A DNA stretch of 10,082 nucleotides from Oribacterium sp. (GCA_963652285.1 CAVJSY010000055.1:1-10082), one strand, 5' to 3'. Numbered from the stretch's first letter, positions 1,322-10,082 are shown. The notes: generated from the sequence alone by a model not told the origin. Numbers and translations are program-made.

Positions 1322-1380
1322 AAAATAATTAAACATAATGTACCATACAATTTAAAATCGTGTGGTACATTATGTTTGAG
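1322..1380 (-). terminator. Putative intrinsic terminator closing the four-gene ATPase/vWA operon
   Basis: Perfect 15-bp inverted repeat: AAACATAATGTACCA (1331-1345) and TGGTACATTATGTTT (1363-1377). It extends to 18 bp with one mismatch. It begins 37 nt past the stop codon at 1414-1416. On the minus transcript it is followed by the U-rich tract AAUUAUUUUAAUAUUU. The stem is AT-rich and the U tract is interrupted, so confidence is moderate. Confidence 0.55.
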
Positions 1381-1413: not shown

Positions 1414-2688
1414 TTATCTTGTTTTTTCTTTTGATTTATTGGAAGTAGCTAATCTTTTTAAGTCTTCGTCACTTATATATATTACTCTTCCTCCTAATGG
1501 ATTTATTTTTCTTCCTCCAAATACTATCCAAATGGCATCAACTTTCTTTTGAGGCATTGATGCCCAGCCATCTGTGAATATTATTTTATTGTTGGCATTT
1601 TTTGAGAAGGCATTTATTGCTGCATCAAAGTCTGTTCCTCCTCCTCCTTGAAATTTTAAGTTTTCAATATCTTTAGATGACTTTACTTCACTGAAACCAT
1701 AGAATTTTGTATCAAAGCATCCTACTTTAACTTTTGACTCTTTTAATATATTTTTACATTCTCTAAGGAAATTTCTAAGTAAATCATCATCAATGGATCC
1801 ACTTGTATCTAATACTATTTCTGTTTCATTTTTTTCTATTGGGTCTATTGTAGGCATAATTATTCCACTTTCTACTTCCGGATTAAGATATGACCAATCT
1901 TCATCTGTTTTAATTGCATTTTTTAATAATCTAGTCCAATTTATTAATGGTATTGCACTTCCTATATCACTTATGTTTCTTTGGTCTGCTAAAGAACTAT
2001 TACCATAACTAGTTGATTGCTGAGCCAGAGACTTTCTAAGTTTCTCTAATTGTTCATCTCTTAACTTTTCATTTTCTTCAAAGATTTTCTTTTCTCCTAT
2101 TTTTCCCATTTTTTCTATATCTTGTTCTATTTTTTGTTCTTTTGGGGTAGAATGATTTTCTTTATTTTCCTCTTGCTTATGTTTCTTTTTTACTGCATCT
2201 TCCCACATAGTATGACTATCATGTCCAACTTGTTTATCATCATTTGAATTATTATTATCTTTTGATTTTTTGTTTTCATTCTCATTATCTTTTTTATCTT
2301 TTAATAGTTTTTCATACAATTGTTCAGCATCATACATATAAGCATCTTTTATGTCTACTCCACCTTCTATTAATGGTAAGCCATCTTTTTGAGTTAAATA
2401 TGAATTAATTACAGCATCTGTTGCTATATTCCAAGTTTCATGATCTTTTCCTTTACTTCTATAAATGTGATTAAGTGCTATATGGCATAATTCATGGGCA
2501 AATAAAAATATTTGTTCTTTTTCTGTTAGAGAATTTGTAAATTCAGAATTGTAATATATATTTTTTCCATCAGTTGCAGCAGTGTCAACTGTTTTTGTCT
2601 CTTCAAAAGTTGTGTTTGCTAGTATGTTGCCAAAGAAGCCATATTTGATTAGTAATTTTCTTTTTATACTATTAATATTTAATTCCAT
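1414..2688 (-). CDS. Zincin-like metallopeptidase (DUF2201_N-type) fused to a vWA-like MIDAS domain (DUF2201-type), joined by a long charged low-complexity linker
   Basis: 424-aa ORF with GAGGT 7 nt upstream of the ATG at 2688. The N-terminal domain carries TAATDGKNIYYN and HELCHIALNH (HExxHxxxxH, nt 2467-2496), then WNIATDAVIN. The C-terminal domain carries IVLDTSGSID (MIDAS DxSGS, nt 1795-1809), QGGGGTDF and IIFTDG. These motifs match the putative-metallopeptidase plus vWA-like family that is usually found next to AAA_5 ATPases, assigned from memory rather than a search. Confidence 0.88.
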   Translation of the reverse strand: MELNINSIKRKLLIKYGFFGNILANTTFEETKTVDTAATDGKNIYYNSEFTNSLTEKEQIFLFAHELCHIALNHIYRSKGKDHETWNIATDAVINSYLTQKDGLPLIEGGVDIKDAYMYDAEQLYEKLLKDKKDNENENKKSKDNNNSNDDKQVGHDSHTMWEDAVKKKHKQEENKENHSTPKEQKIEQDIEKMGKIGEKKIFEENEKLRDEQLEKLRKSLAQQSTSYGNSSLADQRNISDIGSAIPLINWTRLLKNAIKTDEDWSYLNPEVESGIIMPTIDPIEKNETEIVLDTSGSIDDDLLRNFLRECKNILKESKVKVGCFDTKFYGFSEVKSSKDIENLKFQGGGGTDFDAAINAFSKNANNKIIFTDGWASMPQKKVDAIWIVFGGRKINPLGGRVIYISDEDLKRLATSNKSKEKTR

Positions 2689-2697
2689 AGTTTACCT

Positions 2698-3093
2698 CTA
2701 CATTGTTATAACTAGTGATTTAATAGTATCATTAATTTCTTCCAATTTTCCATTTACTAGTATTATACAATTTTTAGGTAGTTCAAGATTACCAATTTTT
2801 CTATACTTTAATATTTCATAAAATTTTTCTTGTTCTTCTTTAGATATTTTTGATAAATCTGTTATTATCAATATAGTACTTTCTTTGTTACATTTTTTTA
2901 CTAATTCATTATACCAATTTGGTGGTAATAATTTACCTTCATTTAATGTTCCATTTAAAGAAGATTTTTTTATATTTGCAGGTAATATAACTGCATCTTT
3001 TTTTATAAAATTAACATCAACGTCACTTACTAATATTGGGGCTACATTTGCCTTTAAATATGCTCTTAATTCATTTATTCTTTCTTTATTCAT
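2698..3093 (-). CDS. Small (131 aa) degenerate AAA+ core paralogue lacking Walker A and the Walker B glutamate (putative pseudo-ATPase subunit or adaptor)
   Basis: Its ATG (3093-3091) overlaps the upstream stop as TAATG, and the SD AAGGAGGA lies inside the upstream gene tail. By eye it aligns to the neighbouring ATPases. PPNWYNELVKKCNKESTILIITDLSKISKEEQEKFYEILKYRKIGNLELPKNCIILVNG matches PPPWYTRLVEKCEKEPNKIHILFLDELNNASPNMQKYAFSIALDRKVNDRFELPKNVRIAAAGN. ANVAPILVSDVDVN sits where SNVAVFLHGKPGEGKS is found in the ATPases. Confidence 0.75.
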   Translation of the reverse strand: MNKERINELRAYLKANVAPILVSDVDVNFIKKDAVILPANIKKSSLNGTLNEGKLLPPNWYNELVKKCNKESTILIITDLSKISKEEQEKFYEILKYRKIGNLELPKNCIILVNGKLEEINDTIKSLVITM

Positions 3094-4310
3094 TATCTTT
3101 TTCCTCCTTTTTTTACATTTGATGTCATTTGTAATTCTGCTACTTTTTCTAATCTTTCTTTATCTCCGTGAGCCCAGATACTATAAAATGTATTTACAAA
3201 TTCTGGACCAAGATTTTCTATAAAGTCTTTTATAATTTCTACGTGTTCTTCACTTACTTGTGATAAACTTACTACCGTTGCATAACTTTCTGATACATTT
3301 AAATTTTTATAATCATTCATATCATAATCACCATTTATTACTTCTTCTACAGTTATTACTGGTTGCATACAGAAACTTATAAATTCTTGTGTTAGGTCTT
3401 CTCCTATTAAACCTCTTAGCATTTGAGGATTTTTAGTACTATATAACATTTTAGATGCCATTTCCCATTTTCTTGGGTCTGCTGTTGGTGTTTGTTTATC
3501 TGGATTTACTTCTGTTCTTAATACTCTTTCTCCACCGTAAGCAATAAATGCATATATAGATGGATGGATATTATTTAATGATGCCCAATTTAACCATTGT
3601 TCTGGTGTTGTTTTTATATTGACATGAGCAAATCTATCATATAATGGTTGAGATATATCATATGCTGATAACGAGTCTTCTACTTCATTTCCAGCGGCTG
3701 CAATTCTTACATTTTTTGGCAATTCAAATCTATCATTAACTTTTCTATCTAGTGCAATACTAAATGCATACTTTTGCATATTTGGACTTGCATTATTTAA
3801 TTCATCTAAGAATAGAATATGAATTTTATTTGGTTCTTTTTCACATTTTTCTACTAATCTAGTATACCATGGAGGAGGTGCATATTCTACTACTTTGGTA
3901 TCATTATTTTTAATTCCCATTCCTACTAAAAGTTCTGGTGTTAATGTGCCTAAAGATAACACTTCACAGTTAGGATCTATTTGTTTAATTCTAGATGATT
4001 TCCCTTCACCAGGTTTACCATGTAAGAATACTGCTACATTAGAGTCAATTGCTCCTTTTATTATATCTTCTTCACTTACTTCTTCAAATGTAAATCCATA
4101 TTGATTTTCTTTTGGTTTGATTTTTGTTAATGTTACTTCTTGAAATATTTCTTTTGCAAATACATTATCTATAAATTTTTTTATAGTTGTATTATCAAAG
4201 TCACCTATATATATTCCAGACTTTTCAAATGGAATGCCTGCGAAAAGAATTTTTTCTGTTACCATAACCTTATTCTTTTCATCAACTAACCATTTTATTG
4301 GTTGTACTCC
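3093..4310. repeat. Direct tandem repeat, copy B (pairs with 4852-6069, offset exactly 1759 bp)
   Basis: Line-by-line comparison shows an indel-free alignment across codons 181-585 of the two ATPase genes. Positions 3219-3821 show no mismatches against 4978-5580. The 126 nt on the 3' side have about 10 differences. Divergence rises steadily on the 5' side. Confidence 0.9.
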
Positions 4311-4850
4311 CATCCAAACAACATTATCCTGAATATTATTGGGATATCTTATGTATCTATGTCCATCTAATTCATATTCTGAATATTGTATTGTATTATC
4401 AGATGGATCTGTATATTTATTGCCTGTCAATTTTAATTTATTTTTTTTATAATATGAATCTACTATCATTTGCTCATCATCATCTAGATAATCTTGTGGA
4501 TAGTAACCGTACTCCACTTCTATAAATCCAGATTCATTAATTTTTTTCCTGTTATTTTCATAAATATCTGATATTGAGGAAAGCGGTAAAACTAAACGAG
4601 CACCTGTATCATCAAAACTAGGAATAGTAGCAGCTTGTAAACCTGCAAAATCAACTATATATACTCCTCTTCTATAACCTCTTGATTTTGTCCAATATGC
4701 TTTATGTAATTCATTGTTCCAATCACTAAATATATCAAATAAGTTAGCAAAATCTGTCATTTTTGCTGTAACATTAGTATCATCTTTAAATATTTCTAAT
4801 CTATTTTCTCCAAAAATTTGTTCTTTTGTTAAAAATGTAAAATCACTCAT
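3093..4850 (-). CDS. AAA+ ATPase (MoxR/AAA_5-like) with a ~250-aa N-terminal non-ATPase domain; downstream tandem paralogue (copy B)
   Basis: 585-aa ORF. The ATG at 4850 lies 1 nt after the copy A stop, with the SD AAGGAGGA embedded in the copy A tail. Walker A is GKPGEGKS (nt 3996-4019). Walker B is ILFLDE (nt 3801-3818). A sensor-1-like RIAAAGNE follows, then a helical lid region. The N-terminal domain carries YWTKS, GARLVLP, VEYGYYPQ and VQPIKWLV motifs. Confidence 0.9.
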   Translation of the reverse strand: MSDFTFLTKEQIFGENRLEIFKDDTNVTAKMTDFANLFDIFSDWNNELHKAYWTKSRGYRRGVYIVDFAGLQAATIPSFDDTGARLVLPLSSISDIYENNRKKINESGFIEVEYGYYPQDYLDDDEQMIVDSYYKKNKLKLTGNKYTDPSDNTIQYSEYELDGHRYIRYPNNIQDNVVWMGVQPIKWLVDEKNKVMVTEKILFAGIPFEKSGIYIGDFDNTTIKKFIDNVFAKEIFQEVTLTKIKPKENQYGFTFEEVSEEDIIKGAIDSNVAVFLHGKPGEGKSSRIKQIDPNCEVLSLGTLTPELLVGMGIKNNDTKVVEYAPPPWYTRLVEKCEKEPNKIHILFLDELNNASPNMQKYAFSIALDRKVNDRFELPKNVRIAAAGNEVEDSLSAYDISQPLYDRFAHVNIKTTPEQWLNWASLNNIHPSIYAFIAYGGERVLRTEVNPDKQTPTADPRKWEMASKMLYSTKNPQMLRGLIGEDLTQEFISFCMQPVITVEEVINGDYDMNDYKNLNVSESYATVVSLSQVSEEHVEIIKDFIENLGPEFVNTFYSIWAHGDKERLEKVAELQMTSNVKKGGKR

Positions 4851-4851
4851 A

Positions 4852-6069
4852 TTATCTTTTTCCTCCTTTTTTTATACTTGATGTCATTTGTAATTCTGCT
4901 ACTTTTTCTAATCTATCTTTATTTCCATGAGCCCAGATACTATAAAATGTATTTACAAATTCTGGACCTAAATTAGATATAAAGTCTTTTATAATTTCTA
5001 CGTGTTCTTCACTTACTTGTGATAAACTTACTACCGTTGCATAACTTTCTGATACATTTAAATTTTTATAATCATTCATATCATAATCACCATTTATTAC
5101 TTCTTCTACAGTTATTACTGGTTGCATACAGAAACTTATAAATTCTTGTGTTAGGTCTTCTCCTATTAAACCTCTTAGCATTTGAGGATTTTTAGTACTA
5201 TATAACATTTTAGATGCCATTTCCCATTTTCTTGGGTCTGCTGTTGGTGTTTGTTTATCTGGATTTACTTCTGTTCTTAATACTCTTTCTCCACCGTAAG
5301 CAATAAATGCATATATAGATGGATGGATATTATTTAATGATGCCCAATTTAACCATTGTTCTGGTGTTGTTTTTATATTGACATGAGCAAATCTATCATA
5401 TAATGGTTGAGATATATCATATGCTGATAACGAGTCTTCTACTTCATTTCCAGCGGCTGCAATTCTTACATTTTTTGGCAATTCAAATCTATCATTAACT
5501 TTTCTATCTAGTGCAATACTAAATGCATACTTTTGCATATTTGGACTTGCATTATTTAATTCATCTAAGAATAGAATATGTATTTTATCTGGTTCTTTTT
5601 CACATTTTTCTACTAGTCTAGTATACCATGGAGGTGGTGCATATTCTACTACTTTTGTATCATTATTTTTAATTCCCATTCCTACTAAAAGTTCTGGGGT
5701 TAATGTACCTAAAGATAATATTTCACAGTTAGGGTCTATTTGTTTAATTCTAGATGACTTTCCTTCACCAGGTTTACCATGTAAGAATACTGGTACATTA
5801 GAATCAATTGCACCTTTTATTATATCTTCTTCACTTACTTCATCAAATGTAAATCCATATTGATTTTCTTTTGGTTTGATTTTTGTTAATGTTACTCCTT
5901 GAAGTATTTCTTTTGCAAATATATTATCTATAAATTTTTTTATTGTTGTATTCTCAAAGTCACCTTCATATACTCCTGACTCTTCGAATGGGACACCTGA
6001 GAATTGTATTTTTTTTGTTACCATAATTTTATTTTTTTCATCGACTAACCATTTTATTGGTTGTACTTC
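4852..6069. repeat. Direct tandem repeat, copy A (pairs with 3093-4310)
   Basis: Same comparison as for copy B. The first ~105 nt of the two genes (6505-6609 versus 4746-4850) are also clearly similar. The poorly alignable segment (6070-6504 versus 4311-4745) lies between the two similar regions. Confidence 0.9.
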
Positions 6070-6609
6070 TATCCAATGATTTCTATCCACTCTTATGTAT
6101 CTATGTCCATTCAACTCATATTCTGGATAAAGTATTTTATTATTAACTGGGTCTGTATATTTATTTCCCGTTTCTCTTAATTTGTTTTTATGATATTCAC
6201 TATCTAATATCATACATAAATTTCTTGATATTGATTTTTGTGGATAGTAACCATATTCTACTTCTAGAAAATCATTCCATGTTTTATTTATTACAAATTT
6301 ATCATTAATAGGAATATTCAATAAGGATAAAAAAGGTATCACTAAACGAGCGCCAATTACTTCTGATTTAAAATATACATTACCATCTTGTCCAAATTCA
6401 TTAACAGCAATCCCCATATCTGGTATATTATATATTGATTTTGTCCAATAGTAACCATTTGATTGATTAAGTGAATCTATCGAATATAATACATCATTTT
6501 CCTGTGCAAAATCTGTTGCTTCTGCTTTAATGTTTTTATCATCTTTAAATATCTCTAATCTATTTTCTCCAAAAATTTGTTCTTCTGTTAAAAATGTAAA
6601 ATCACTCAC
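4852..6609 (-). CDS. AAA+ ATPase (MoxR/AAA_5-like) with a divergent ~250-aa N-terminal domain; upstream tandem paralogue (copy A), first gene of the operon
   Basis: 585-aa ORF with a GTG start at 6609-6607 preceded by GGTGGAG. The start is supported because copy B begins at the homologous MSDFTFLT with an ATG. Walker A is GKPGEGKS (nt 5755-5778) and Walker B is ILFLDE. From residue 181 to 585 it is colinear with copy B with no indels and few substitutions. Confidence 0.9.
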   Translation of the reverse strand: MSDFTFLTEEQIFGENRLEIFKDDKNIKAEATDFAQENDVLYSIDSLNQSNGYYWTKSIYNIPDMGIAVNEFGQDGNVYFKSEVIGARLVIPFLSLLNIPINDKFVINKTWNDFLEVEYGYYPQKSISRNLCMILDSEYHKNKLRETGNKYTDPVNNKILYPEYELNGHRYIRVDRNHWIEVQPIKWLVDEKNKIMVTKKIQFSGVPFEESGVYEGDFENTTIKKFIDNIFAKEILQGVTLTKIKPKENQYGFTFDEVSEEDIIKGAIDSNVPVFLHGKPGEGKSSRIKQIDPNCEILSLGTLTPELLVGMGIKNNDTKVVEYAPPPWYTRLVEKCEKEPDKIHILFLDELNNASPNMQKYAFSIALDRKVNDRFELPKNVRIAAAGNEVEDSLSAYDISQPLYDRFAHVNIKTTPEQWLNWASLNNIHPSIYAFIAYGGERVLRTEVNPDKQTPTADPRKWEMASKMLYSTKNPQMLRGLIGEDLTQEFISFCMQPVITVEEVINGDYDMNDYKNLNVSESYATVVSLSQVSEEHVEIIKDFISNLGPEFVNTFYSIWAHGNKDRLEKVAELQMTSSIKKGGKR

Positions 6610-6713
6610 TTTATCTCCACCTATCTATAGTAATAATATCATATTTTCTTTATTAATTAAAGAGATTTAGAAAAATAAACTATTAAATAAATCCTTTTTT
6701 GTAAATTATATTT

Positions 6714-6741
6714 ATTATAATTATTCTTATATTTCTGTAAT
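6714..6741 (-). promoter_or_regulatory. Candidate sigma-A type promoter for the ATPase/vWA operon
   Basis: On the minus strand there is ATTACA (6741-6736), a 16-nt spacer, then a perfect TATAAT (6719-6714). A second perfect TATAAT sits at 6710-6705. In DNA this AT-rich, -10-like hexamers are common, so this is only a plausible placement within the 6610-6742 intergenic region. Confidence 0.3.
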
Positions 6742-6742
6742 A

Positions 6743-6769
6743 GAAAAAAAGACTAATTCTTTAGTCTTT
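6743..6769 (-). terminator. Rho-independent terminator after the SDR gene
   Basis: A 9-bp stem, AAAGACTAA (6748-6756) pairing with TTAGTCTTT (6761-6769), with a 4-nt loop. It starts immediately after the TAG stop at 6770-6772. On the minus transcript the 3' arm runs straight into UUUUUUUCU. Confidence 0.75.
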
Positions 6770-8242: not shown

Positions 8243-9157
8243 TTAATCTTCCCATAAGTTGTTTGGATATTCTCTATTTTCTATTAATGTATGTATTTTA
8301 TTTTCTAAGTCTTCCATATCTTCTTTGTATGTAAGTCCTGCCCAGACACTTTCTGATACAATATTTCTTAGTAACAAATTGCCATTTGCTATATTTTTCT
8401 TAACTGTATCTGGTAAAAATACTTCTTTATCTTTTAATACTTCCTTATCATTATGAATAAATTCTTTGAAGTCTATTTCTAACATATCCATAAAATTTTT
8501 TTGAAATCCAAATAAATTCATTGATACTGGATGTGTTAATTTCATATCAAATTCTTCTTTAGTGTTTAAATTAGTACAATGAGCAAGTGTTTCTTTAATT
8601 TCAATTGAACATTCTGTTATTCCTGTTACATATTTTTTATCTTCTGATAATTCTATTACTCCTCTTTTTACACTTCCAAAATTGCTACTAGTTTTGATAA
8701 ATGGATAAGATATCATTACACCTTCATGTATATTATCAGATTCTTTTAGATAGTTTGCAACTTTTTTATAAGCATCATATCCGTAGAAATCATCTGCATT
8801 TATTATTGCAAATGGTCCATTTACTAACTCTTTAGCACATAATATAGCATGTGCTGTACCAAGTGGTTTAGTTCTATCTTTTGGTACATTAGAATCAATT
8901 GGTAGATTATTTATTTCTTGATATGCATATTCTATTAATATTTTTCCATTTACTCTTTTTTCTATAGTATTTTTAAATATTTGTTCGTGTTCTTTTCTTA
9001 TTACAAATACTATTTTATTAAAACCTGCTCTTATTGCATCATAGATTGAGTAATCTATTATAAATTCTCCACTTGGGCCTATTTCAGTTATTTGTTTTGG
9101 TCCGCCAAATCTACTACCCATTCCTGCTGCCATTACTACTAATGTTAAATTTTTCAT
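8243..9157 (-). CDS. Sugar-phosphate nucleotidyltransferase-like protein (NTP_transferase fold), paralogue 2; start revised from the ORF track
   Basis: Carries the MAAGMGSRFGGPKQ glycine-rich NTP loop, KPLGTAHA and INADDFYG. The tracked ORF starts at 9205. However, AAGGAGGG lies 4 nt upstream of the internal ATG at 9157-9155. That start gives MKNLTLVVMAAG, matching MKDITLVVMAAG of the upstream paralogue and the same 304-aa length. It also removes the 38-nt overlap with the upstream gene. Confidence 0.85.
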   Translation of the reverse strand: MKNLTLVVMAAGMGSRFGGPKQITEIGPSGEFIIDYSIYDAIRAGFNKIVFVIRKEHEQIFKNTIEKRVNGKILIEYAYQEINNLPIDSNVPKDRTKPLGTAHAILCAKELVNGPFAIINADDFYGYDAYKKVANYLKESDNIHEGVMISYPFIKTSSNFGSVKRGVIELSEDKKYVTGITECSIEIKETLAHCTNLNTKEEFDMKLTHPVSMNLFGFQKNFMDMLEIDFKEFIHNDKEVLKDKEVFLPDTVKKNIANGNLLLRNIVSESVWAGLTYKEDMEDLENKIHTLIENREYPNNLWED

Positions 9158-9167
9158 TTTGCCCTCC

Positions 9168-10082
9168 TTATTTTTGCCATAAATTATCTGGATATTCTCC
9201 ATCACTAATTAATTTATTTATTGTTTCTTTTAATTTTGGTAAGTCTTCTTTATATGTTACTCCAGTCCATATTCCATTTGAAACTATATTTTTTAATTTT
9301 AATTTATTTGATTTTAAATATTTTTGGGCTGTTTCTGAAATAACTAATTCTCCTTTTAATAGTTTTTCTTCATCTTGATGGATAAATTCGTTAAAATCTT
9401 CTTCTAATAAATCTAAGAAATTTTCTTTAAAACAGAATAAATTCATTGATACTGGATGATCTAATGATATAGTAAAACTTGGGCTTCCATCTAATGGTTC
9501 ACAGTTTGCAATATTGCCATTAGTTGTTATTTTTGATTCTATTAATTCTTTAATGTAATTTCCATCTAATTCTATTACTGCTCTTTTTACGCTTCCAAAT
9601 TCACTTGCAGTAATACCATATGGATATGATATAACTGCTCCAGTATTTTCATCAGTTTCTTCTTGTAAAAACTTTACTGCTTTTTCGTAAGAGTCTCTTC
9701 CATAAAAGTCATCTGCATTTATTATTACAAATGGTCCATTAATTTTTTCTTTTGCACATAATATGGCATGATCTGTTCCCCATGGTTTTACTCTTTCTTT
9801 TGGTATTTTTACATCACTTGGAACATTTTCTAATTCTTGATATACATATTCTATTTTTATATTATTATCTTTATTAATTCTTTTATCTATAGTTTCTTTA
9901 AATACTTCTCTATGTTCTTTTTTTATAATAAATACTATTTTGTTAAATCCTGCTTTTATTGCATCATATATAGAATAGTCTATTATAAATTCTCCACTTG
10001 GGCCTACTGGTGTTATTTGTTTGGGGCCTCCAAATCTGCTACCCATTCCTGCTGCCATTACTACTAGTGTTATATCTTTCAT
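9168..10082 (-). CDS. Sugar-phosphate nucleotidyltransferase-like protein (NTP_transferase fold), paralogue 1
   Basis: 304-aa ORF whose ATG sits exactly at the window edge. Motifs are MAAGMGSRFGGPKQ, KPWGTDHA and INADDFYG. It is colinear with the downstream paralogue along its whole length. Substrate specificity cannot be read from the sequence. Confidence 0.85.
   Translation of the reverse strand: MKDITLVVMAAGMGSRFGGPKQITPVGPSGEFIIDYSIYDAIKAGFNKIVFIIKKEHREVFKETIDKRINKDNNIKIEYVYQELENVPSDVKIPKERVKPWGTDHAILCAKEKINGPFVIINADDFYGRDSYEKAVKFLQEETDENTGAVISYPYGITASEFGSVKRAVIELDGNYIKELIESKITTNGNIANCEPLDGSPSFTISLDHPVSMNLFCFKENFLDLLEEDFNEFIHQDEEKLLKGELVISETAQKYLKSNKLKLKNIVSNGIWTGVTYKEDLPKLKETINKLISDGEYPDNLWQK

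Follow-up and report, generated by a model that had tools for sequence, protein, structure and literature searches.

Conflict systems that combine MoxR-type ATPases with von Willebrand factor A (vWA) proteins and are diversified by diversity-generating retroelements (DGRs) have been predicted computationally (Kaur et al. 2020, PMC7159879; Doré et al. 2024, PMC10907252), and the large DGR surveys, in their main texts, place the variable repeats (VRs) systematically at the C-terminus. A MoxR ATPase and a zincin-vWA protein also occur as a pair in group 2.2 jumbo phages, for which a chaperone/peptidase role in virion assembly has been proposed (Iyer et al. 2021, PMC7824862). Here we analyse a 10,082-nt stretch of DNA from Oribacterium sp. 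(GCA_963652285.1, CAVJSY010000055.1:1-10082; the whole stretch is hereafter called the window), which has a G+C content of ~26% and carries an operon of four minus-strand open reading frames (ORFs). In the order of transcription these encode two paralogous ATPases (ATPase 1 and ATPase 2), a small protein (S) and a zincin-vWA protein. Each ATPase begins with a domain, here called the head, which in relatives of the operon is the target of a DGR. By analogy with the described systems we propose, with a probability of about 0.55, that the operon encodes a ligand-triggered cytoplasmic MoxR-AAA+/vWA-protease machine that would act as sensor and effector in biological conflict.

The head-plus-AAA architecture has more than 2,800 relatives in the databases, typically 600–690 aa long and 43–47% identical; a scan of one genome per species yielded 375 relatives, and the locus counts given below cover the best 78 loci. 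Clustering of the ORFs that flank these 78 loci revealed only two recurrent neighbours, a protein of ~349 aa at position -1 and a protein of ~194 aa at position -2. The former is a reverse transcriptase (RT; RVT_1 5.8e-18, with the YMDD and LGNQSSQ motifs), the latter is weakly bAvd-like (E 0.002). A template repeat (TR) of 77–103 nt lies between the Avd-like and RT genes, upstream of the ATPase, and its copy, the VR, is found 200–300 nt inside the ATPase gene, within the N-terminal domain. TR/VR pairs with adenine-specific mismatches were identified in 17 loci (e.g. 12/12, 14/14, 16/17 and 10/10 mismatches at TR adenines), and since nearly all mismatches fall at TR adenines, these pairs carry the signature of a DGR. 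The RT is encoded upstream in 24 of the 59 loci that have enough upstream sequence. In three related genomes the TR is 100% identical and the VRs differ at 12–17 of 100 nt, with 12/12, 15/17 and 13/15 of the differences at TR adenines and a divergence of 0.7–3.7% in the rest of the gene; to judge from these sequences, the DGR is active in nature. The VR of the relatives maps to residues ~57–92 of ATPase 1 and 55–89 of ATPase 2 of the window, i.e. to the stretch where the two window ATPases differ most, and ends at a conserved G-A/V-R-P-A-L motif, which has drifted to GARLV[IL]P in the window.

Two further observations concern the DGR-bearing relatives. In the metagenome-assembled genomes (MAGs) with the loci L005, L015, L052 (ATPase ORF split near 10230–10330), L062 and L063, the reading frame is broken exactly at the VR, which is probably a consensus-assembly artefact of a mixed VR population, not a sign of a pseudogene. 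In L007, L012, L021 and L022 the RT ORFs are short or split and a clean TR/VR pair was not detected; these look like decaying DGRs beside an intact module.

The window itself represents a different situation. No RT, Avd or TR was found in it or in the 20-kb contig CAVCKQ010000007 of MAG GCA_963602645.1 (L001), of which the window is the reverse complement save for 23 single-nucleotide polymorphisms (SNPs) and an assembly gap; the window lineage appears to have lost the DGR or never to have had one. Its two ATPases are 81% identical overall, with 96% identity over residues 1–24, 30–38% over residues 25–118, 57% over residues 119–180 and 97% over residues 256–585, and their genes share a 540-nt stretch of 100% identical DNA. 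At least five head alleles circulate in the close clade, 26–50% identical over residues 25–118 and embedded in flanks that are 92–100% identical. Between L001 and L084, conspecific contigs with the same synteny and ~97% nucleotide identity over 20 kb, the cassette of ATPase 2 is the only strongly divergent block of the module. The divergence spans ~740 nt (L001 10326–11069) and includes indels, and is therefore attributed to recombinational replacement of a cassette, not to DGR mutagenesis. A third conspecific contig holds yet another head allele. A DGR-type origin of the difference between ATPases 1 and 2 of the window was considered and rejected: the difference extends over ~470–740 nt with indels, there is no ~100-nt adenine-specific patch, and there is no TR or RT.

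Across the family, multi-copy ATPase arrays are commoner in loci devoid of a DGR (12/35 vs 1–2/24; Fisher p 0.009–0.03, in a test that ignores phylogeny), which would make paralogy and the DGR substitutes for each other in diversifying the head. We regard it as established that specificity is determined by the hypervariable head, whose diversity comes from a DGR, from paralogy or from the exchange of cassettes. A preliminary description of the operon, made from the sequence of the window, had taken the N-terminal domain for a variable sensor, and this idea now has strong independent support both from the DGR of the relatives and from the confinement of strong divergence in the module to the head cassette in genomes that are otherwise ~97% identical.

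The head modelled alone with AF2 is a β-rich domain (pLDDT 88.4, pTM 0.87). Pfam family DUF6273, according to a published report C-type-lectin-like and targeted by DGRs in the receptor-binding proteins of gut phages (PMC10743442), matches 4 of 42 homologues; among these, P0019 (3.8e-6; 27.3 vs 23.5 bits), the one above the cut-off, and P0038 (7.5e-5) match over the VR-bearing part, and such profile matches suggest that the head is likely lectin-like. In ATPase 1, residues 4–96 resemble the C-terminal, VR-bearing part of DUF6273 (profile positions ~77–168), which thus comes first. The segment W-x-V-x-P-I-K-W-L-V-D at residues 180–205 presumably resembles the start of DUF6273, and such an order of segments could reflect a permutation or a one-and-a-half-copy arrangement.

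Behind the head (the β-rich receptor-like domain, residues 1–~240), ATPase 1 comprises an AAA+ core (residues ~262–412; Walker A K284, Walker B D349/E350) and a helical C-terminal extension. Both window ATPases match Pfam family AAA_5 marginally (24.1 and 23.4 bits vs cut-off 22; E 3.8e-5 for ATPase 1), as do 25 of 42 homologues at E ≤ 0.01, and both match phrog_1297, annotated as 'ATPase' in PHROGs, over residues ~260–574 (1.2e-55 and 4.3e-56). Searches of the PDB by sequence with the ATPase profile revealed no solved relative, and an NCBIfam search with the four operon proteins gave no meaningful match. The AlphaFold model of the ATPase (pLDDT 77.7) identified NorQ/NorQ-NorD as the top Foldseek matches in the PDB (E 5.5e-7, prob 1.0), and the further matches include MoxR CHU_0153 (2r44), McrB, MCM and dynein; the several domains of the model keep the TM-scores of these matches low. 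Walker A is kept in 95/95 and Walker B in 94/95 ATPases of the family. Sequence and model comparisons thus assign both proteins to the MoxR-clade AAA+ ATPases with a helical C-terminal extension, and the MoxR/AAA_5 call of the preliminary description holds, given the Pfam scores above the cut-off and the Foldseek matches to NorQ, MoxR CHU_0153 and McrB.

In the zincin-vWA protein the peptidase domain precedes the vWA domain (PF13203 and PF09967), and both DUF2201 matches exceed their thresholds, in agreement with the fusion recognised earlier. Phrog_1314 matches the protein end to end (2.1e-68), a PDB search by sequence found no solved relative, and a search of the literature on DUF2201 found nothing relevant. 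The peptidase motif HExxH is kept in 65 of 68 orthologues and the MIDAS motif DxSxS in 61 of 68, most exceptions belonging to a subfamily devoid of S, so that the motifs whose conservation in orthologues had been singled out for checking are indeed retained. In the window itself, the motifs GKPGEGKS and ILFLDE in both large ATPases and HELCH and DTSGS in the last gene were found intact, and the numbering previously given for K284, E66 and D294 agrees with ours.

S belongs to a conserved family of ~130-aa proteins. Its profile aligns to residues 262–391 of the ATPase with Walker A missing (hhalign prob 95.9%, E 5e-9), which bears out the preliminary view of this protein as a P-loop-less AAA relic. 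S lacks both Walker A and the Walker B Glu, the position of the Arg finger appears from the alignment to be replaced as well, and 69 of 72 family members are without GK[ST]; S is predicted to be a catalytically dead P-loop-less AAA core. The subfamily devoid of S (L068–L073, L076, L036 and L065) comprises genomes mostly labelled Clostridia, Bacteroidaceae or Lentihominibacter, and in 6 of 8 of its members the MIDAS of the vWA protein also lacks the canonical DxSxS pattern.

Nearly all of the 78 loci belong to uncultured gut 'Bacilli', 'Tenericutes', 'Clostridia' and CAG genomes, obtained from samples of human, rabbit, mouse and ruminant origin. ATPase, S and zincin-vWA protein are all present in 66 of them and S is absent from 8; the zincin-vWA gene is in the same operon as the ATPase in 74 loci, and in the other 4 the contig ends ahead of it. 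The ATPase stop and the S start overlap by 4 nt in 31 loci and by 1 nt in 24 (55 in all), and the gap between S and the zincin-vWA gene measures 7–10 nt in 52; this spacing of the genes implies translational coupling. The number of ATPase copies is one in 62 loci, two in 11, three in 3, and four and five in one locus each. Paralogues within a locus usually have C-terminal parts 88–100% identical, and their heads can diverge far more. One locus (L058, 4492–18283) contains two complete modules and extra ATPases, at least five full-length copies, and another (L009, 8530–17992) combines a DGR with four ATPase copies that are 96–100% identical and all carry the same VR sequence. None of the four operon proteins of the window shows a transmembrane segment or a signal-like N-terminus (the neighbouring CPBP protease, taken as a control, shows seven hydrophobic segments), and by these sequence features all four look cytoplasmic. 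Sequence comparison therefore allows us to regard ATPase, S and zincin-vWA protein as an established module, predicted to be conserved, translationally coupled, catalytically intact and cytoplasmic.

The features of the operon are collected in Table 1. The ORF coordinates confirm that four co-directional genes are tightly packed, with spacings in the order of transcription of +1 nt, -1 nt (a TAATG overlap) and +9 nt, as first described, and direct folding reproduced the two hairpins reported on either side of the unit. The upstream one has a 10–11-bp stem followed by UUUUUUU (about -9 to -10 kcal/mol, z = -2.1) and is the weaker, being matched in folding by 6 of 200 shuffles; the downstream one reaches -25.5 kcal/mol (z = -6.5), and 0 of 200 shuffles fold equally well. 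A generic terminator scan of the window gave 0 sites and detected neither hairpin, because each stem has fewer than 3 G-C pairs. The downstream hairpin, placed between the stop of the zincin-vWA gene and a DnaB_2-like replication gene (minus-strand start at 1171), is near-perfect, unusually long, folds on both strands and is stronger than a terminator requires.

Table 1. Predicted features of the operon and its borders in the window, in the order of transcription (nt, nucleotide positions in the window; res, residues of the protein)
Feature	Position (nt)	Strand	Residues	Remarks
Terminator-like hairpin with U-tract	6748..6769	-		Closes upstream SDR gene; bounds unit 5'
Promoter-like site (ATTACA, 16 nt, TATAAT)	6714..6741	-		In AT-rich leader; consensus match alone, 10/12
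Ribosome-binding site GGTGGAG	6615-6621	-		Precedes GTG start of ATPase 1
ATPase 1, GTG start	4852..6609	-	585 aa	Head, MoxR/AAA_5 core, helical C-terminal extension
ATPase 1 hypervariable cassette	6070..6537	-	res 25-180	Holds VR-equivalent stretch, nt 6334-6441
ATPase 2	3093..4850	-	585 aa	Paralogue of ATPase 1; other N-terminal cassette, near-identical AAA+/C-terminal part
ATPase 2 hypervariable cassette	4120..4778	-		63-83% nt identity between conspecific genomes
S	2698..3093	-	131 aa	Putative dead AAA+ α/β core; start overlaps ATPase 2 stop (TAATG)
Zincin-vWA protein	1414..2688	-	424 aa	DUF2201_N metallopeptidase, K/E/N/D-rich variable linker, DUF2201 vWA
DUF2201_N metallopeptidase, HELCH (E66)	2101-2661	-	res 10-196	2.8e-30, 106.3 bits, cut-off 23.2
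DUF2201 vWA, MIDAS DTSGS (D294)	1474-1818	-	res 291-405	1.5e-14, 54.6 bits, cut-off 26.4
Hairpin, 21-bp stem	1331..1377	-		3' of zincin-vWA stop; probable terminator bounding unit 3'

The operon was recovered in four independent assemblies of the same species, each with two ATPase copies that bear distinct cassettes, and is therefore no assembly artefact. Of the 23 SNPs that separate the window from L001, nine fall in pairs at equivalent positions of both ATPase genes (3360–3753 and 5119–5512), within or beside the 540-nt identical stretch; together these may reflect concerted evolution or gene conversion, possibly also the collapse of reads during assembly. The nine SNPs in ATPase 1 leave the protein unchanged.

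In 4/4 long contigs from the species of the window, the module occupies the interval from the SDR gene to the DnaB_2-like/DnaI/DnaE genes; in a relative with 57% identity its neighbours are RNase J and the MraZ cluster. In one conspecific strain (L089 of GCA_963641985.1, 11020–12750) an insertion sequence (IS) with a DDE_Tnp_1 transposase separates the SDR gene from ATPase 1, and the upstream Rce1-like CPBP gene appears broken into small ORFs. The M23 peptidase gene downstream of DnaE (L001 19620–20213) is a second hotspot of divergence among conspecific contigs (67–87% nucleotide identity vs ~97%). Elsewhere in the window, tandem paralogues of the NTP_transferase (sugar-nucleotidyltransferase-like) family, about 70–72% identical in DNA, occupy 8243–9205 and 9168–10082 on the minus strand; there L001 has an N-gap with a 9-nt duplication, a place that the window resolves. 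A prophage or mobile-element origin of the locus was rejected: the flanks contain no integrase or phage genes, the viral database IMG/VR gave one match, and the IS is present in one strain.

How might such a module work? In our opinion the operon is probably an intracellular sensor, and its ligands are most likely phages or other invaders, since the most satisfactory reason to aim hypermutation at a binding domain in the cytoplasm is the recognition of intracellular ligands that evolve fast, namely proteins of phages or mobile elements. If NorQ-NorD, CbbQ-CbbO and the predicted VMAP-type systems are taken as models, the ATPases would form a ring, possibly a mixed one, that displays the receptor heads, and the vWA domain of the zincin-vWA protein would dock on this ring. 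S, which should be unable to bind or hydrolyse ATP, may cap or gate the ring assembly and so set a threshold. Binding of a ligand by the head (in a system that appears cytoplasmic and hypervariable, a protein of a phage or mobile element is the most plausible) would trigger ATP-driven remodelling that releases or activates the zincin, and the peptidase would then cleave a target of the invader or of the host. More specifically, though as a tentative idea that we hold to be possible and not probable, the module could be a compact, programmable intracellular immune receptor, widespread among the Bacilli of human and animal guts, in which the head on the MoxR motor, varied by a DGR, by arrays of paralogues or by cassette exchange, would recognise an invader protein, the zincin would be licensed via the vWA adaptor and the dead AAA core would serve as the threshold device; the phage homologues would then be its source or counter-measures against it.

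Several observations weigh against the sensor–effector reading. No PADLOC-DB 2.0 family matches any of the four proteins at E ≤ 0.1, the flanks are housekeeping, and the PADLOC-type neighbours are sporadic (a Type I restriction-modification specificity subunit in 2/141 proteins, AbiEi in 1/141, and matches to generic helix-turn-helix models). All four conspecific contigs of sufficient length carry the module, a distribution that is not patchy. For the homologous gene pair of phages, the role put forward is that of an assembly chaperone (PMC7824862). The DGR argument is based on homology with relatives 40–47% identical, and the window lacks RT, Avd and TR. The assignment of a lectin fold to the head is weak: DUF6273 matches few homologues, and Foldseek comparison of the head with the PDB and BFVD gave no significant match, the best PDB match being a Tudor domain of 53BP1 (E 0.09) and DUF6273 proteins in BFVD matching at E 0.3–0.9 alone. 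Finally, the parts that S and the peptidase play in this scheme are wholly inferred. The preliminary interpretation of the operon as a candidate conflict system thus fares unevenly: its anatomy and the variable-sensor idea stand, and several of the contextual hallmarks of defence that it listed fail, as there is no PADLOC match, no defence island or prophage around the module and no patchy distribution among the four conspecific contigs.

The chief competing explanation is a classical MoxR-vWA chaperone or maturase with proteolytic processing, whose client complex would belong to the host or to a resident phage-like element and whose head would track a fast-evolving client. A gene pair found in 510–733 records of lytic phages (N4-like, PA5oct-like jumbo, rV5-like and Campylobacter phages) is homologous to the AAA+ and C-terminal part of the ATPase and to the zincin-vWA protein, and both proteins have strong PHROGs matches; the virion-assembly role proposed for that pair, the maturation factors NorQ/NorD as the best structural analogues, and the fixation of the module at one chromosomal site within the species all favour this explanation. 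The phage ATPases are devoid of the head, the matches beginning at residue ~260, and relatives number 375 in cellular genomes vs 1 full-length relative among 2.9 million IMG/VR contigs, which speaks against this explanation. The upstream neighbours in the 78 loci represent 185 Pfam families among 132 proteins, none of them seen more than 3 times and the recurrent ones mostly housekeeping (MraW, TsaD, FtsW, PheT); no client enzyme is conserved beside the module across these loci, which argues against a dedicated maturation chaperone. DGR hypermutation and strain-level swapping of cassettes are also hard to square with a fixed housekeeping client, and we consider this explanation unlikely. Among the phages, Acinetobacter phage nACB1 (L088) shows the N4-like order of MoxR ATPase, small ORF and zincin-vWA gene, followed by a second AAA ATPase (phrog_2376). 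Its small ORF (137 aa, L088 4137–4550) was examined as a homologue of S and rejected (prob 0.06, and no PHROG match either).

Or perhaps the module senses something other than phages, for instance in kin/non-kin discrimination, in the detection of imported variable molecules (bacteriocins or host-derived ligands) or in regulated proteolysis on variable intracellular cues? In general, DGR targets bind ligands in a wide range of contexts, kin recognition has been raised for DGR-diversified NTPase systems (Doré et al. 2024, PMC10907252), and the lack of a defence-island context would fit. Against this, the components look cytoplasmic and have no secretion signal, and no transporter or toxin partner is conserved nearby. 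We also know of no kin-recognition system of such type in small-genome unicellular gut Bacilli, and this counts further against a function that seems rather improbable to us.

That the locus is a decaying domesticated phage/DGR remnant without current function, its second ATPase maybe an artefact of assembly, is very improbable: the absence of a DGR from the window, RT fragments that show DGR decay in some relatives, and an identical 540-nt stretch with SNPs vs L001 shared by both copies, which could stem from assembly collapse, are outweighed by catalytic motifs that are intact and conserved, by SNPs that are silent in ATPase 1, by two copies with distinct cassettes in four independent assemblies and by a gene spacing that indicates translational coupling.

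So far, predictions of DGR-diversified NTPase 'antigen sensors' have concerned mainly multicellular bacteria with large genomes. The module family offers a minimal version with three genes (plus Avd, TR and RT), with the hypervariable receptor on the motor itself, common in uncultured gut Bacilli. It would be a tractable test case for targeted hypermutation in the service of intracellular recognition and for a MoxR ring that couples ligand binding to a protease, and it provides a functional handle on the DUF2201 zincin-vWA proteins and on the MoxR/zincin-vWA pair of N4-like and jumbo phages. The lineage of the window shows another route to receptor diversity where the DGR is absent, namely paralogy and cassette replacement.

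Comparison with the described systems places the module closest to the VMAP-ternary systems, in which one locus encodes a MoxR ATPase, a vWA protein and a peptidase in association with a DGR whose target of hypermutation is a ligand-binding domain, the sensor parts are paralogous or variable and inactive enzyme copies recur, all of this by prediction only. In these systems the hypervariable FGS/C-lectin domain is C-terminal on the vWA protein, whereas the module carries it close to the N-terminus of its ATPase; their third VMAP protein carries a trypsin or caspase effector, whereas here a zincin is fused to vWA and the third gene encodes a putative dead AAA core. No counterpart of the third VMAP protein was found, with only RT and Avd otherwise conserved nearby and no other Pfam family in the four proteins. 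The hosts differ too (multicellular cyanobacteria, actinobacteria and gamma-proteobacteria vs small-genome gut Bacilli), and the module of the window is without a DGR, unlike the VMAP-ternary systems.

The phage pair (PHROGs 1297/1314) shares with the module the AAA+ core with its C-terminal extension, the whole zincin-vWA protein and the gene order with a small ORF between; it has no ~260-aa head, its small ORF is not detectably related to S, it is not linked to a DGR, and it has a proposed role in virion assembly. The CLec-AAA/NTPase targets of DGRs in candidate phyla radiation bacteria (CPR; Paul et al. 2017, as cited in PMC10907252; 'UVR4/Midasin', PMC5758913) resemble it, in a comparison by description alone, in the fusion of a VR to an AAA-type ATPase, but have the NTPase upstream of a C-terminal VR, i.e. 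the opposite orientation, and belong to other phyla; their descriptions mention no zincin-vWA or AAA-relic partner. Nor do the large DGR surveys, namely Roux 2021, Wu 2018 (PMC5758913) and two surveys of the gut, describe the target architecture of the module in their main texts. The 'tentaclins' (DUF6273, PMC10743442) have their VR near the N-terminus of the target as well, the VR ends in G-A/V-R-P-A-L, and a few members of the module family match DUF6273; tentaclins are extracellular phage receptor-binding proteins with Ig-like domains after the VR, whereas here the domain heads what appears to be a cytoplasmic ATPase. With NorQ-NorD and CbbQ-CbbO, finally, the module shares an ATPase whose best structural matches are NorQ/NorQ-NorD (Foldseek) and a vWA/MIDAS partner encoded next to it; unlike them, it has no nearby client, and it adds a head, an AAA subunit predicted to be dead and a vWA-linked peptidase.

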